NCBI GenBank assembly: GCA_947626115.1 | Contig: CANQQX010000002.1 | Coordinates: 2,871-66,870, forward strand | DNA: 64,000 nt | Origin: an uncultured Bacilli bacterium | GTDB taxonomy: Bacteria; Bacillota_I; Bacilli_A; RF39; UBA660 | Direction of reading: 5' to 3' | Shown: positions 42,797-50,315 of the stretch, one piece after another | Layout of the letters: every line of letters begins with the position of its first letter | How positions within the stretch are numbered: position 1 is the first letter of the stretch | Position numbers and translations under genes: made by a program | Notes under the pieces: generated by a model | What the model was told of the DNA's origin: nothing | Databases searched by the model: none | The model's input: only the letters and a program-made list of their open reading frames with translations

Positions 42797-42870
42797 GCCC
42801 AATTAGTTTAATGGTAAAACAAGGCACTCGTAATGCTTAGCTGTGAGTTCGATTCTCGCATTGGGCACCA
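42797..42870 (+). tRNA. tRNA-Thr (anticodon CGU), CCA encoded
   Basis: Acceptor stem GCCCAAT/ATTGGGC, anticodon stem AGGCA/TGCTT, loop CTCGTAA (anticodon CGT), T-arm GTGAG-TTCGATT-CTCGC, discriminator A and CCA. Confidence 0.85.
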
Positions 42871-42898
42871 TTGACGTTTCTATTCGAACTTTTTCGAA
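42865..42898. repeat. Left flanking direct repeat (attL candidate)
   Basis: GCACCATTGACGTTTCTATTCGAACTTTTTCGAA, compared with GCACCATTGACGAATCTGTTCGAACTTTTTTCGGA at 48248. The first 12 nt are identical and about 30 of 35 match overall. Contains the hairpin TATTCGAA-CTTT-TTCGAATA. Confidence 0.7.
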
Positions 42899-42968: not shown

Positions 42969-43253
42969 TTGGTGTCTATGGTTAATGTAATCAAGCAAGA
43001 AATTGATATGGAAGAATCTTTAAAAAGAAGACTAGATATTATTTGCGATTTTTGTAATACTGCTCCTAAAATTATTAACGGAAGTATTAGAAAAATAGAT
43101 AAAACAAATTTATCTTATATTGAACCACATAGGATTATCATTAAAAACATAACATTTCTTGCATTTAATTATTCTACTGATATTTATATTAAAAATTTGA
43201 AAAATAAAATACAATTATCAGAATTACAAGATTTTATCAGTAAAATCAAGTAA
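42969..43253 (+). CDS. Hypothetical protein (94 aa)
   Basis: ORF with SD AGAAAGG and a TTG/GTG start region. No motif. Confidence 0.35.
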   Translation: MVSMVNVIKQEIDMEESLKRRLDIICDFCNTAPKIINGSIRKIDKTNLSYIEPHRIIIKNITFLAFNYSTDIYIKNLKNKIQLSELQDFISKIK

Positions 43254-45392: not shown

Positions 45393-45468
45393 CTAAGGCG
45401 AGCCTTAGCCCCCCGTATTTTGTTATGACAAAATACCTAGGGGGTTAATAATTTTGTCATAACAAAAT
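45393..45468. promoter_or_regulatory. oriT-like cluster of overlapping inverted repeats upstream of the MobV gene
   Basis: CTAAGG/CCTTAG (45393-45408). C6...G5 arms (45409-45444). A perfect 18-bp inverted repeat ATTTTGTTATGACAAAAT (45417-45434) / ATTTTGTCATAACAAAAT (45451-45468). Confidence 0.6.
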
Positions 45469-45499
45469 TACCATAAAAAACTTAAAGAAAGGAGATGTA

Positions 45500-46870
45500 A
45501 TTTTTATATATAGTTTAGCTTATTCTTTCCATATAGGAAATGACCAAAATAAGAAGAATAGTGTTAGAAATAGTGCTAAAAGTAATTTAAGTGGTACAAC
45601 ATCTAAAGCTAATAATGCAATTCAAAATGCATCATCATTAGCAAAAGTTGATAATCATAATTGTAGAAAATATGATGATAAAGAAAATGATATTGAATTT
45701 ATTAGAGGTACTAATTCGGTAGTGGATGATGTTAAAAAACTATATAAAGATGAGTTTGAAGAAGCAGTTTTGAAATATAATTCAAGACAAGTTAGAGATG
45801 ATAGAAAAATTAAAGATTACTTTACTTATGTTAGCAATAACGCTAAAAATGATCTAGCAGTTCAGATTATAATTGAACTAGGAGATAAGGAATTTTGGGA
45901 TACGAAAGATATAATATTTAAAAAGAGAATGACTACCATTTATAAAGAGCAAGTTCATTATTTAGAACAAATACTTCCTAATTTTAAAGTAGCAAGTGCT
46001 ATTATTCACTATGATGAAAGTTGTCCCCATCTTCATATTGTAGGTGTACCAATTAAATATAAAAGTAAAAACGGAATGAATAAACAAGTTGGAAAATCAG
46101 ATGTATTTACAAAAGAATCTCTCCATAATTTACAAGATAAAATGAGAGAAAATTGTATTGAAGCTTATAATAAAGAGTATAGCTTAGATGATATTTTAAA
46201 TGAAAAAATGGAAGGTAGAAATGAAGATTATGTAAAAAAAGACTATATAAAAATGAAGAAAAAAATTAAAATTCATGAGAACAATTTAAAACGAGCAAAA
46301 GAAAAATCAGAAAAATTAGATAGTTCTACTAAAGAAGTAAAAGAGATACTAAACAATACTAAAGTTAAAGGCTTTAATAAAAGTCAATATGTAATATCTC
46401 TTGAAGAAAAAGAAAAAATTGATGAGTTTGTTAAGCAAGTAGATAATACTAATAAAGAGTATCAAAGAATTCAAAAGTTATCAGTTACTTTGGAAGAAAT
46501 GGATTCTAGTATGTTTAAAAACGAACAACAAATTTCTCATCTTACTATGTTAAATTCAAATCTAGAAACTGAAAATATTTCTTTAAATAAAATGTTAAAA
46601 GAAAAAGAAGTTACTATTGATAATTTAAAGAATGAAAACAAAACATTATCTTCTAAACTTAAATATTTTAAAGATATGTTTTATAATCTTGTTCAATTTC
46701 TTATGGATAAAATATTTAGAGTTAAAGATAGTAAGTATAAGGAGTTTGCTAAAGAATTATACGAGCATGGAGCATTAGAAAATAAAAACTATGAAGATAT
46801 TATGGGTATATCTAAAGTCAGTAATTTAAAAGAAAATAAAGTAAAAGAAAAAGAAGATTTTGAGCGATAA
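45500..46870 (+). CDS. MobV-family (Mob/Pre) relaxase; 5' end lacks a canonical start codon
   Basis: HYDESCPHLHIVGVP (HxDE..PHxH, motif III) lies downstream of GTG 45722. The HxxR motif (DNHNCRKY) lies upstream of it in the same open frame, which has no ATG/GTG/TTG back to the TAA stop upstream of the SD. SD AAAGGAG is followed by ATT at 45500. Confidence 0.7.
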   Translation: MFIYSLAYSFHIGNDQNKKNSVRNSAKSNLSGTTSKANNAIQNASSLAKVDNHNCRKYDDKENDIEFIRGTNSVVDDVKKLYKDEFEEAVLKYNSRQVRDDRKIKDYFTYVSNNAKNDLAVQIIIELGDKEFWDTKDIIFKKRMTTIYKEQVHYLEQILPNFKVASAIIHYDESCPHLHIVGVPIKYKSKNGMNKQVGKSDVFTKESLHNLQDKMRENCIEAYNKEYSLDDILNEKMEGRNEDYVKKDYIKMKKKIKIHENNLKRAKEKSEKLDSSTKEVKEILNNTKVKGFNKSQYVISLEEKEKIDEFVKQVDNTNKEYQRIQKLSVTLEEMDSSMFKNEQQISHLTMLNSNLETENISLNKMLKEKEVTIDNLKNENKTLSSKLKYFKDMFYNLVQFLMDKIFRVKDSKYKEFAKELYEHGALENKNYEDIMGISKVSNLKENKVKEKEDFER

Positions 46871-46893: not shown

Positions 46894-48096
46894 CTATTTT
46901 TTAACTTCAAGTTTTAGTACTTTAGAAGTACCATCTATTTCCAAATTATGTTGTTTATTAATCAAGGCTAAACAATTGTCAATTCGTTCAACTAAACCAG
47001 ATAATGGTAATTCTCCTTTTATAGTTTTTAACATCTCTATTACCATTGCTTCAGTTTGTTTTACAGTTTCCATGTTAAAATCAGAAGAATCAAAACTAAT
47101 AACTCTTTGACTTAAATTTTTTGCAATAGCATTTTGTGTAGAACTCGCAAAATTAGAGACAATTATGTCACTGCTACTTTGATTATTATATGATGGTAAT
47201 AATAAATTATTTGCAGTTCCTAATAACATAGGATTTGTTGTTAAATCAACTTTAACGCCTTTTCTAGAATAGAAATTAGCACGAATTCCTTTTTTTCTAC
47301 TTACATCAAATCTATAAGTACCATTTATTTTTCCGTTACCTTTATGGGTGTTAATTGCAATTGCACCCATTTCTAAACTATCATCAGGATTTAGAGCAGC
47401 TTCAAAAGCGATTGAAGCATTATTTTGTCTATTTCGTTTATCATATTCTTTTATTATTCTTACTAACTTCATGCCAGTATTTAAGTCTTCAATAATTTCT
47501 ATATCATTAAATCTTTTTGTTAAAATATTTCCATTTAAAGCAAGTGAAATATGATCAGACATGAGTTCTTTTCTCCAATCCTGAGTTAATTTAAAAAGTG
47601 TAATATCTATACTAAAATCATTTGATAAAACATTAAAAGTTGTGTTATAAGATATTTGTCTAGGATTTTGTGGTGTTATTCTTTTTTTTACTTCTTTTGA
47701 AAAATTAATTTCTCCATTGTTATTGAAAGAAAAGTATCTTCTTGATTTATGAGATATCATCGCATGCCAATCAATTCTTCCAAATTCACATTCAAAATTT
47801 ATGTTTCTTTCTCCTGTGTTTGAATTATTTCCTACTAAGATTTCTTTCGCAAGAGGTATCCCAATACTTTTTCCAGAATAAAAAGCATTTGCTAATCTAT
47901 ATCTTAATCCATATTTATCTTCCATATCTCGTACATCAGCTTCACCAATTCCATAATGTAATGTTAAACAATGTGCATCTAGTAATTCTTCATACCAACT
48001 AGCATTCCAACTTTTTACATACTCTTCAGCTTTTTGCATTTCTTCTAAAACTTTTTCAACTGCTATCATTTGCAATTCTTTATCTAATTTTTCCAT
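46894..48096 (-). CDS. Orphan 400-aa protein, unknown function (sole cargo of the IME)
   Basis: Long ORF with SD AGGAGGAAAG and an upstream TATAAT-like box on the minus strand. No motif I can recognise. The plus-strand ORFs 47348-47554 and 47742-48002 are shadows. Confidence 0.6.
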   Translation of the reverse strand: MEKLDKELQMIAVEKVLEEMQKAEEYVKSWNASWYEELLDAHCLTLHYGIGEADVRDMEDKYGLRYRLANAFYSGKSIGIPLAKEILVGNNSNTGERNINFECEFGRIDWHAMISHKSRRYFSFNNNGEINFSKEVKKRITPQNPRQISYNTTFNVLSNDFSIDITLFKLTQDWRKELMSDHISLALNGNILTKRFNDIEIIEDLNTGMKLVRIIKEYDKRNRQNNASIAFEAALNPDDSLEMGAIAINTHKGNGKINGTYRFDVSRKKGIRANFYSRKGVKVDLTTNPMLLGTANNLLLPSYNNQSSSDIIVSNFASSTQNAIAKNLSQRVISFDSSDFNMETVKQTEAMVIEMLKTIKGELPLSGLVERIDNCLALINKQHNLEIDGTSKVLKLEVKK

Positions 48097-48247
48097 GGCT
48101 TTCCTCCTAATAGTTACATATTATATCATAAATTGATTAAAAAATTAAAACAATTTTGAATAATTGTGATAAAATGTTAAGTAGAGATTGATTTTTATAT
48201 ATTAAAATCGCTGATTGGGTGAAAAGTTGTAGATTACTACGTTACTT

Positions 48248-48283
48248 GCACCATTGACGAATCTGTTCGAACTTTTTTCGGAC
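48248..48283. repeat. Right flanking direct repeat (attR candidate)
   Basis: GCACCATTGACGAATCTGTTCGAACTTTTTTCGGAC. See 42865-42898. Confidence 0.7.
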
Positions 48284-48302
48284 TTTAACATAAAAAATAA
48301 TC

Positions 48303-48350
48303 CCTTAGGTTATTTTGATAGACTTGTCAAAATACCTAGGGGGTTAAATA
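48303..48350. repeat. Degenerate second copy of the IME oriT left half
   Basis: CCTTAGG-TTATTTTG...TGTCAAAATACCTAGGGGGTTAAATA compared with the IME sequence CCTTAGCCCCCCGTATTTTG...TGACAAAATACCTAGGGGGTTAATA. The 20-nt CAAAATACCTAGGGGGTTAA is identical (45429-45448 and 48328-48347). Confidence 0.65.
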
Positions 48351-48374
48351 TTAAGGAAAAGAGAAATTTTGTTT

Positions 48375-48821
48375 ATGAAAAATTATAAGGCTTATAAATT
48401 AGAATCTGCAACTAAGAATGATATAGAGTTATTAATATCCTATAAATTAGCAACTATTTTAGATTATGCTAAAGATTTACCTAAAGGAGAAATTGAGAAA
48501 ATAACTAATTATGTTAAAACTACTGTTCCTACCCAAATTGATGATTATAAGATTATTATAATCAACAACAAAAAAATTGGATGTTTATTATTAGAAAAAT
48601 ATGAAGATGGTATTTTACTAAGCGAATTATATCTGGATAAAAATTATAGAAGAAAAGGAATAGGTACAAATATATTAAATAATGTATTAAATAATAATTT
48701 TAAAGTCTATTTATGGGTTTATAAAGAAAATACTCTTGCTTTAAATTTATACAAAAAATTAGGATTTAAAATAAAAGAAACTACTGAAAATAGATATTTT
48801 ATGCAATATGACAAAAGTTAG
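48375..48821 (+). CDS. GNAT family N-acetyltransferase
   Basis: LYLDKNYRRKGIGTNILNNVL (acetyl-CoA binding R/Q-x-x-G-x-G/A) and LYKKLGFK. Confidence 0.75.
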   Translation: MKNYKAYKLESATKNDIELLISYKLATILDYAKDLPKGEIEKITNYVKTTVPTQIDDYKIIIINNKKIGCLLLEKYEDGILLSELYLDKNYRRKGIGTNILNNVLNNNFKVYLWVYKENTLALNLYKKLGFKIKETTENRYFMQYDKS

Positions 48822-49019: not shown

Positions 49020-50315
49020 ATGAAAAAATTATCAGTTAAATCTGTTACAGGTTTAGTATTAGTATCTGGCTTAGCTGCTGCTGGTGCTTATGTAGTAACA
49101 ACCAATGCTAATAAAAAATATGATGCTTCACTAGTTAATGAAGTAAATAATGAAGAAACTTTAAATTTTGCAGAAAATGCTACAATTGAAATAACTGCAG
49201 ATGATAGTGAAGAAGTAGTTGAAGCAAAAAAGGAAGCCATTGCTGCTAATGAAGAAGTTGCTAGTGCTACAAAAGAAATTAAACAAGCTAATGCTAAAGT
49301 AGATAATGCTAATAAGGAAATAGCAGAAGCACAAAATACGCAAAAGGAAGCAGAAAAAGCAGTTCAAAATGCCGAAAAAGCTGCCGAAGATGCTAAAGAA
49401 GCAAAGAAAGCTGCTGAAGCAGAATTAAAGGCTGCTAAAACTGCTGCTGAAAAGAAAGCTGCCGAAGCTAAATTAAAAGCTGCTAAAGAAGAAGCACAAA
49501 GAGCAGCAGATGCTAAAAAGGAAGCTGAAGCTAAAAAACAAGCAGCCATTGAAGCTGAAAGAAAAGCTGAAGAGACAAGAAAAGCTGCTGAAGAAGCTGC
49601 AAAAAAAGCCGAAGAAGCAAGAAGAATTGCCGAAGAAAAAGCTAAGAAAGCTGCCGAAGAAGCTAAAAGATTAAAAGAAGAAGAAGCCAAGAGACAAGCT
49701 GAAGAAGCAGCTAAATTCCAAAGAATGCTAGAAATGGCAAAAAAAGGTGAAGAAAGAGATAAAGCTGAATATGAAGCTCAAATGAAAGCTAAGGAAGAAG
49801 AAGTTGCTAAAAAAAGAGCTGAAAGACTTGCTAAAGAACAAGCCGAAAAAGAAGCAGCTGAAAAAGAAGCTCAAGAAAGAGCAGCCAGAGAATCAACTGC
49901 TGGTTTAGAAGAAAGACTAAAAGAGGAAGAAGAAAGAAAAAATGTAGAATATACATCTGATAGATTAATTACAGCCCAAAAACAAGCCGGTTCTTCAGTT
50001 AAATCAGATGTTAAAGAACATCCGATTGATGCTTTACGTAAAGATTTTGATCCAACTCTTACTGATAAAGATTATGGTTATATTTGGTTTGTTAGATTTA
50101 CTTGTGATATGAATGAGTGTTATGGATTCTCTATACCTGGATCTAGTAACTTTGGTGGTGATGTTATTTATGGTCGCAGAGGAGACGTTGAAAAATTAAC
50201 AATGTATGCTCCAGCTGCAAAACCTGGTTATGAATTTGAAAAATGGGAAAGATCTTCTTACACCCTTGAAAACATTACTATGGTAAGTTATAGAGCAGTA
50301 TATAAACAAATTTAA
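49020..50315 (+). CDS. Secreted/surface protein with long Ala/Glu/Lys-rich coiled-coil and a C-terminal Listeria-Bacteroides-repeat-like domain
   Basis: Signal peptide (KSVTGLVLVSGLAAAGAYV), about 250 aa of AEKAAEEAKK-type low complexity, and a C-terminal PGYEFEKWE motif. Confidence 0.55.
   Translation: MKKLSVKSVTGLVLVSGLAAAGAYVVTTNANKKYDASLVNEVNNEETLNFAENATIEITADDSEEVVEAKKEAIAANEEVASATKEIKQANAKVDNANKEIAEAQNTQKEAEKAVQNAEKAAEDAKEAKKAAEAELKAAKTAAEKKAAEAKLKAAKEEAQRAADAKKEAEAKKQAAIEAERKAEETRKAAEEAAKKAEEARRIAEEKAKKAAEEAKRLKEEEAKRQAEEAAKFQRMLEMAKKGEERDKAEYEAQMKAKEEEVAKKRAERLAKEQAEKEAAEKEAQERAARESTAGLEERLKEEEERKNVEYTSDRLITAQKQAGSSVKSDVKEHPIDALRKDFDPTLTDKDYGYIWFVRFTCDMNECYGFSIPGSSNFGGDVIYGRRGDVEKLTMYAPAAKPGYEFEKWERSSYTLENITMVSYRAVYKQI

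Follow-up and report, generated by a model that had tools for sequence, protein, structure and literature searches.

What is the function of a protein of 400 aa that is the only cargo of a minimal mobilizable island? The question is raised by a 5.4-kb element in a 64,000-nucleotide stretch of DNA from an uncultured Bacilli bacterium (the whole of which we call the window). The element contains only orf94, a large serine recombinase, an oriT-like hairpin, a MobV relaxase, and an ORF that we name, together with its family, X400 (Table 1). The ORF list reveals no other credible ORF within the element; this list and the domain matches bear out the sequence-only reading of the locus, which had described an island reduced to integration, mobilization, a 94-aa ORF, and the 400-aa ORF. 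That reading had also placed the latter on the opposite strand with a Shine-Dalgarno (SD) sequence and a -10 box of its own, and both signals are indeed found. The SD sequence, AGGAGGAAAG, is the reverse complement of positions 48099-48108, and the extended -10 element, TGATATAAT, occupies 48120-48128 on the minus strand. The two are kept in front of the homologs in five other loci (six with the window), and X400 is transcribed independently, from a conserved extended -10 promoter that is its own.

Table 1. Features of the X400 island and its immediate flanks (positions in the window)
Feature	Positions	Strand	Evidence or remark
tRNA-Thr (CGT), integration target	42797..42870	+	ARAGORN; Rfam tRNA 66.7 bits; element begins at its 3' end
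Left junction: tRNA 3' end GCACCA plus left-end motif TTGACG..TTCGAAC	42865..42894	+	Repeat D14
orf94, conserved backbone gene	42969..43253	+	ORF; directly upstream of the recombinase
Large serine recombinase, integrase, 643 aa	43419..45350	+	Pfam Resolvase 2e-34, Recombinase 4e-20, Zn_ribbon_recom 6e-5
oriT-like inverted repeat upstream of mob	45417..45468	+	ssDNA fold -18.4 kcal/mol, z = -5.4
MobV/Mob_Pre relaxase	45500..46870	+	Pfam Mob_Pre 6e-14, NCBIfam MobV; aligned with 448-462-aa homologs
X400, cargo protein of an undescribed family	46894..48096	-	ORF, 400 aa, ATG start
X400 ribosome-binding site AGGAGGAAAG and extended -10 promoter TGATATAAT	48099..48128	-	Sequence; conserved across six loci
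Right junction: GCACCA plus second copy of the left-end motif	48248..48277	+	D14, 27/30 nt identical
Remnant oriT-like hairpin (second copy) beyond the intact element	48298..48346	+	ssDNA fold z = -3.3
GNAT acetyltransferase gene, divergent from X400, outside the intact element	48369..48821	+	Pfam Acetyltransf_7/1

Anatomy and boundaries of the island

The presence of a recombinase, a relaxase with an adjacent oriT but without mating-pore genes, and defined ends at a tRNA target indicates that the element is, as judged from its sequence, an IME. The 19-nt core of the oriT-like repeat also precedes the Mob gene in sister loci. The small upstream gene orf94 recurs in nearly every sister element (60-80% identity); it has no match in Pfam, NCBIfam, PADLOC, or PHROG and is a candidate regulator or recombination directionality factor. 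The frame of the relaxase is open 5' of the listed GTG (45722) and encodes there the conserved N terminus, including the H-x-x-R motif (VDNHNCRKYD). Between positions 45490 and 45725, no in-frame ATG, GTG, or TTG that would give the full-length relaxase is found; an ATG at 45495 is out of the relaxase frame and runs into a TAA, and an in-frame ATT lies at 45500, 5 nt past an AGGAG. The relaxase would appear either to use a noncanonical start or to have been inactivated by a 2-nt indel.

In most of the 80 sister elements described below, orf94 is preceded by the left-end motif, TTGACGAATCTGTTCGAAC. This motif adjoins different tRNAs across genomes (Thr-CGT, Leu-CAA, Leu-TAG, and Gly-GCC) and, because the adjacent tRNAs differ in this way, it belongs to the element rather than to its targets. 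The right boundary at 48247/48248 is supported by a locus whose X400 is 93% identical to that of the window (L018), where the similarity to the window stops exactly at GCACC. The window contains two copies of GCACCATTGACG, the core of the repeat that marks both junctions, where 0.03 would be expected, and the second hairpin, beyond the right junction, carries a 19-nt core identical to that at 45430-45448, with 0 expected by chance. A classical att duplication was considered for the 30-nt repeat and rejected in favor of a remnant in tandem: the majority of sister elements lack a copy on the right, and the right-hand copies that do occur are usually followed by a second orf94. The right-hand copy and the second hairpin are thus probably what is left of a decayed second element in tandem, a remnant that would be mobilizable in cis. 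An independent element at a tRNA-Leu displays the same arrangement of a left-end-motif copy and a second hairpin (L011, 1500-1800).

An undescribed family with an unmatched predicted fold

A search of 5.8 billion proteins recovered 187 clusters of X400 homologs, mostly full length and down to about 46% identity, and 1.84 billion representatives, scanned exhaustively with HMMER, yielded 131 clusters at 50% identity. All named sources of these homologs are metagenome-assembled genomes of uncultured gut Bacilli, Erysipelotrichales, or "Tenericutes". X400 had earlier been called an orphan, a label that is wrong given a family of this size. The same reading had recognized no catalytic or structural motif in the protein, and here the more sensitive comparisons agree with it. 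Searches with X400 against Pfam, NCBIfam, PADLOC, and PHROGs gave no meaningful match, Pfam being equally empty for 50 family members. None of the 5027 models of PADLOC-DB v2 was hit at an E value of ≤1, and nothing was retrieved from the PDB sequences by single sequence or by profile. No catalytic, nuclease, NTPase, TIR, or membrane domain was recognized by Pfam, NCBIfam, or hydropathy analysis. The last of these detected no transmembrane segment (maximum Kyte-Doolittle 19-residue score, 0.93); the protein is predicted to be soluble and does not have the makeup of a pore or 2TM effector.

An AlphaFold2 model built from a 50-sequence alignment is confident (pLDDT 87.2, pTM 0.84) and displays, after a set of N-terminal helices, about 15 β strands (83-284) that run as one unbroken antiparallel meander; four helices make up the C-terminal part. 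The helical N terminus and the β-rich region had been correctly anticipated from the sequence, but the C-terminal helical region of about 100 aa had been missed. Foldseek comparison of the model with the PDB and BFVD returned nothing credible; a comparison of this kind had been asked for in the sequence-only reading. All matches were insignificant, with TM scores below 0.25; they comprised β-barrel or half-barrel lipid binders (such as ORP/Osh, LolA, VioE, and ATG2) and MORN proteins. MORN-like or other internal repeats were also sought directly and rejected: hhalign comparison of three β segments and self-comparison gave probabilities of ≤2%, and there is no Pfam MORN match. The best-conserved part of the protein is a basic hairpin region at 247-284 (THKGNGKINGTYRF...NFYSRKG), and C terminal to these hairpins lies a conserved K-I-x-G-E-x-P-L-x-G-L-x-x-R motif. 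Nearly invariant positions are R120, K134, Y150, N155, Y261, G280, E362, P364, and R371. The X400 family is firmly established as real, conserved, and under constraint, and it is undescribed in both its sequence and its predicted fold.

X400 as variable cargo of a defense-rich slot

Loci that are collected through X400 itself are subject to ascertainment bias, and to avoid it we used the relaxase as the anchor. This yielded 80 metagenomic elements (L036-L115; 1.07 Mb) with the same orf94-recombinase-Mob backbone and left-end motif. X400 was found in none of the 80 by tblastn with 50 diverse queries, and the profile HMMs of both of its subfamilies likewise gave no hit at an E value of ≤10 across the 1.07 Mb, against 38 hits in the positive control. 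Its absence from all 80 indicates that X400 is variable cargo and not part of the backbone.

Downstream of Mob, the sister elements have a hypervariable slot, whose proteins fall into 252 clusters in 54 loci. In many cases the gene that comes first in it is convergent with Mob; another orf94-recombinase unit frequently begins 1-5 kb farther along, so that tandem arrays at tRNA genes are common. Among 148 de-duplicated slot proteins, PADLOC recognized CBASS cyclases, a retron reverse transcriptase (6e-126), viperins, SAVED-HNH, RmrA, mad2, capH, and PDC-S02; Pfam adds radical-SAM, HTH, and methyltransferase proteins and some genes of the host flank. Going by these assignments, the slot that X400 occupies is used largely for immunity genes in this element family. 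The backbones of the sister elements are alike, yet nearly every copy carries a different cargo of 1-4 kb, with many unknown proteins.

Gene neighborhoods of X400

About 11 of the 24 distinct X400 loci retain orf94, recombinase, or Mob genes. X400 is codirectional with Mob in two loci (L001 and L012) and convergent with it in the window and five others (L009-L011, L022, and L031), and a tRNA or tmRNA gene lies within 10 kb in 14 of 22 loci. We found no match to the family in 72,556 plasmids, 50,697 phages, or IMG/VR contigs, and a plasmid or phage origin of X400 is accordingly unsupported.

Several loci combine X400 with recognizable defense genes. In one (L001), it is followed by SLATT_4, SMODS/AGS_C (CBASS), and Abi_2 genes; in another (L012), it is followed by PDC-M41A (1e-84) and its radical-SAM partner; and a PDC-M30A-like fragment lies downstream of it in a third (L004). 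The Shedu gene sduA is directly upstream of X400 in three different elements (L009, L010, and L031-L033), and in three contexts (L009, L014, and L026-L030) X400 is followed after 14 nt by a gene for an LDcluster4/SLOG (LOG-like) protein; SduA-X400 and X400-LDcluster4/SLOG may represent recurrent two-gene modules. HamB (Hachiman) and AbiD are also among the 126 proteins encoded next to X400. Some of the homologs occur, as the sequence-only reading had asked to be checked, with mobile-element backbone genes or with defense genes. A recognized defense gene is present within ≤4 kb in about 6 of the 24 loci, a raw proportion that is confounded because X400 is found on an IME vehicle that itself carries defense genes.

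Many other neighbors are housekeeping or metabolic genes, such as those for HSP90, a P-type ATPase, and a pseudouridine synthase. At one locus (L034), X400 is wedged between PPDK_N and a string of aminotransferase, SDR, and aldehyde dehydrogenase genes, with 14 nt separating it from each. At another (L026), it is placed between an AP_endonuc_2/xylose-isomerase-like gene and genes for LOG-like, His-phosphatase, APH, cupin, and deaminase proteins. A codirectional gene starts within 100 nt downstream of X400 in 10 of 17 informative loci, and these genes belong to eight different families. Frameshifts, in-frame stop codons, or a deletion within the gene disrupt X400 in four of the approximately 24 distinct loci (L016, L017, L020, and L022), as would fit a gene that is costly or can be dispensed with.

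tmRNA genes are classical hotspots of integration. The X400 island of L004 (5953-9212) begins right after a tmRNA gene, and its unannotated genes include one for an Mbeg1-like protein.

A long subfamily with a GNAT-fold domain

Distant relatives of X400, about 470-500 aa in length, have an extra N-terminal domain of about 160 aa fused to the same core (P0182, P0190, P0215, P0218, P0222, P0227, P0233, P0238, and P0246; L119). This domain has no Pfam match by sequence, and a profile search of the PDB likewise failed to detect it (E value, 0.28). In the AlphaFold model of P0190 (pLDDT 71), the N-terminal domain displays the canonical GNAT order of β and α elements. Nearly all of the top 50 Foldseek matches of P0190 are GNAT acetyltransferases (probability 1.00, target-normalized TM 0.45-0.65), and its core again has no structural match. 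The N-terminal domain of the long subfamily (that of P0190, for example) shares its topology with the GNAT acetyltransferases, including the toxins AtaT and KacT; the X400 of the window differs in having no such domain, as it has neither a Pfam match of this kind nor a GNAT-like β-α unit in its model. Inspection by eye revealed no Q/R-x-x-G-x-G/A acetyl-CoA motif in the fused domain, which may therefore be inactive. The gene for P0190 lies at the border of a different mobile element, close to tyrosine integrases and an ArdC-N domain. Two further proteins, P0121 and P0186, have other, unrecognized N-terminal extensions of 250-280 aa.

Functional interpretation

The explanation that we favor, with a confidence that falls just short of even, is that X400 is a stand-alone immunity protein of the abortive-infection type directed against phages or mobile elements. 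Its gene is an accessory of a small IME (orf94, large serine recombinase, oriT, and MobV) that inserts at the 3' ends of tRNA genes. The β domain, with its invariant basic hairpins (around 247-284), may recognize a ligand derived from the invader, for instance, a nucleic acid or a nucleotide, and the helical parts at the two termini, including the K-I-x-G-E-x-P-L-x-G-L-x-x-R motif, could pass the signal on to bring about growth arrest or blockage of the invader. In the distant subfamily, the same core would be coupled to the GNAT-fold domain as an enzymatic output. This scheme, with sensing by basic β hairpins and a helical or GNAT-fold output, is a working model and purely hypothetical. The earlier proposal of a single-gene defense or exclusion determinant stands in that the family is undescribed, X400 is true cargo, and its context is rich in defense genes, but we infer the role itself from association, because several homologs sit among ordinary or metabolic-looking genes. 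On this evidence, X400 is a plausible and credible candidate for a single-gene defense system of an undescribed family. It is also possible, if somewhat doubtful, that X400 founds a family of single-protein immune systems with a fold absent from the PDB, in which the β meander and helical core act as a modular sensor of invaders, alone or with varied N-terminal modules (one of them GNAT fold), and that this IME family, in its tandem arrays at tRNA genes, is an important reservoir of unexplored immunity in uncultured gut Bacilli.

Other roles can be conceived for such a gene. X400 might be nonimmune adaptive cargo, such as a small-molecule- or lipid-binding, β-barrel-like protein or an accessory metabolic factor, which is borne on islands as any useful gene would be. 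Its tight packing with PPDK_N and the aminotransferase, SDR, and aldehyde dehydrogenase genes in L034, its metabolic-type flanks in L026, and the faint resemblance of its model to lipid-binding β folds are in line with such a role. However, those fold matches (TM below 0.25) are insignificant, X400 has a promoter to itself and is the only cargo that the window element carries, and its partners differ at almost every locus, which disfavors a single pathway; we regard this role as rather unlikely. A function in antidefense or establishment, by which X400 would aid the entry of the element or its helper like the leading-region genes of conjugative plasmids, seems quite improbable to us. Defense and antidefense genes are known from the literature to cluster near oriT in integrative elements, X400 lies beside mob and oriT at the element end, and the long-form P0190 is found near ArdC-N and integrases; yet no member of the family was found among the plasmids, phages, and IMG/VR contigs, X400 is convergent with mob in some elements and codirectional in others, and many copies have no transfer genes nearby.

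We give little credence to the idea that X400 is a selfish stabilizing gene, an addiction or toxin-like factor that holds the island in the chromosome. The frequency of disrupted copies is what a costly gene would show, and X400 is the sole cargo of a minimal element, but no small antitoxin ORF is conserved beside it, its neighbors vary, and sister elements persist without it. A backbone function, as a recombination directionality factor, replication protein, or regulator, might be read from the adjacency of X400 to mob in several elements and from its position against the right end, with conserved flanks, in the window, L011, and L018. Its absence from every one of the 80 sister elements with the same backbone led us to reject this hypothesis, and its presence in many loci devoid of any backbone gene makes it hardly credible.

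If X400 is indeed an immune protein, as we favor, it would constitute a defense family without sequence or structural precedent from poorly studied gut bacteria, presented in the simplest testable form, a single gene under a single promoter carried by an element of 5.4 kb. Unknown genes are numerous in defense-rich contexts, and X400 is one of them; it offers no catalytic clue. Independently of X400, the single cargo slot of the element family samples many defense systems as well as unknown genes and can be used as bait for further systems.

Relationship to known mobilizable islands and defense systems

Mobilizable transposons of the Tn4451/Tn4453 type encode TnpX and TnpZ. Streptococcal IMEs combine a MobV relaxase with a serine recombinase (PMC5357655, PMC5704250). 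The window element resembles both in pairing a large serine recombinase with a Mob_Pre/MobV protein, in the inverted-repeat oriT just upstream of mob, in its small size and small cargo, and in its need for a helper conjugative system; the comparison with TnpX and TnpZ is one of description. Its family differs from both in targeting the 3' ends of several tRNAs (Thr, Leu, and Gly), in the conserved orf94, in its tandem arrays, and in a hypervariable cargo slot with many defense systems.

IMEs and recombinase-linked islands are carriers of defense systems (PMC10201445, PMC13552941, bioRxiv 10.64898/2026.01.13.699239), and defense cargo on mobilizable islands is a known theme (the same sources and PMC11551731). 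Defense hotspots of hitcher elements and recombinase-marked islands are described in reports on pipolins (PMC11551731), P4/P2 (PMC13586616), and serine-recombinase-linked islands (PMC13552941). These share with the element family of the window a conserved mobility module and a rapidly exchanging slot for diverse immune systems. The element that carries X400 is a large-serine-recombinase/MobV IME from uncultured gut Bacilli, whereas PMC13552941 deals with small serine recombinases; the systems described in the available text of the three reports do not include X400. The literature that we searched holds no description of the X400 family, its fold, or the window element family in uncultured gut Bacilli.

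Among single-gene defense systems, AbiD/Abi_2 and Shedu SduA resemble X400 in consisting of one gene with its own promoter that is carried as mobile cargo, and both are found side by side with it. X400 differs from them in having no similarity to either in sequence or fold and no nuclease or other catalytic motif.

Genes beyond the right end of the island

A GNAT acetyltransferase gene lies next to X400 in the window (Table 1). A functional link between the two was rejected: the product of this gene has no profile similarity to the fused GNAT-fold domain, no split copy of that domain is found beside X400 anywhere, and the adjacency of a GNAT gene is not recurrent. Farther downstream (49020-50315), an ORF of 431 aa without a Pfam match has an N-terminal hydrophobic, signal-like segment followed by a long Ala/Glu/Lys-rich repetitive region, visible in the DNA as many degenerate repeat families; it probably encodes a surface or coiled-coil protein.
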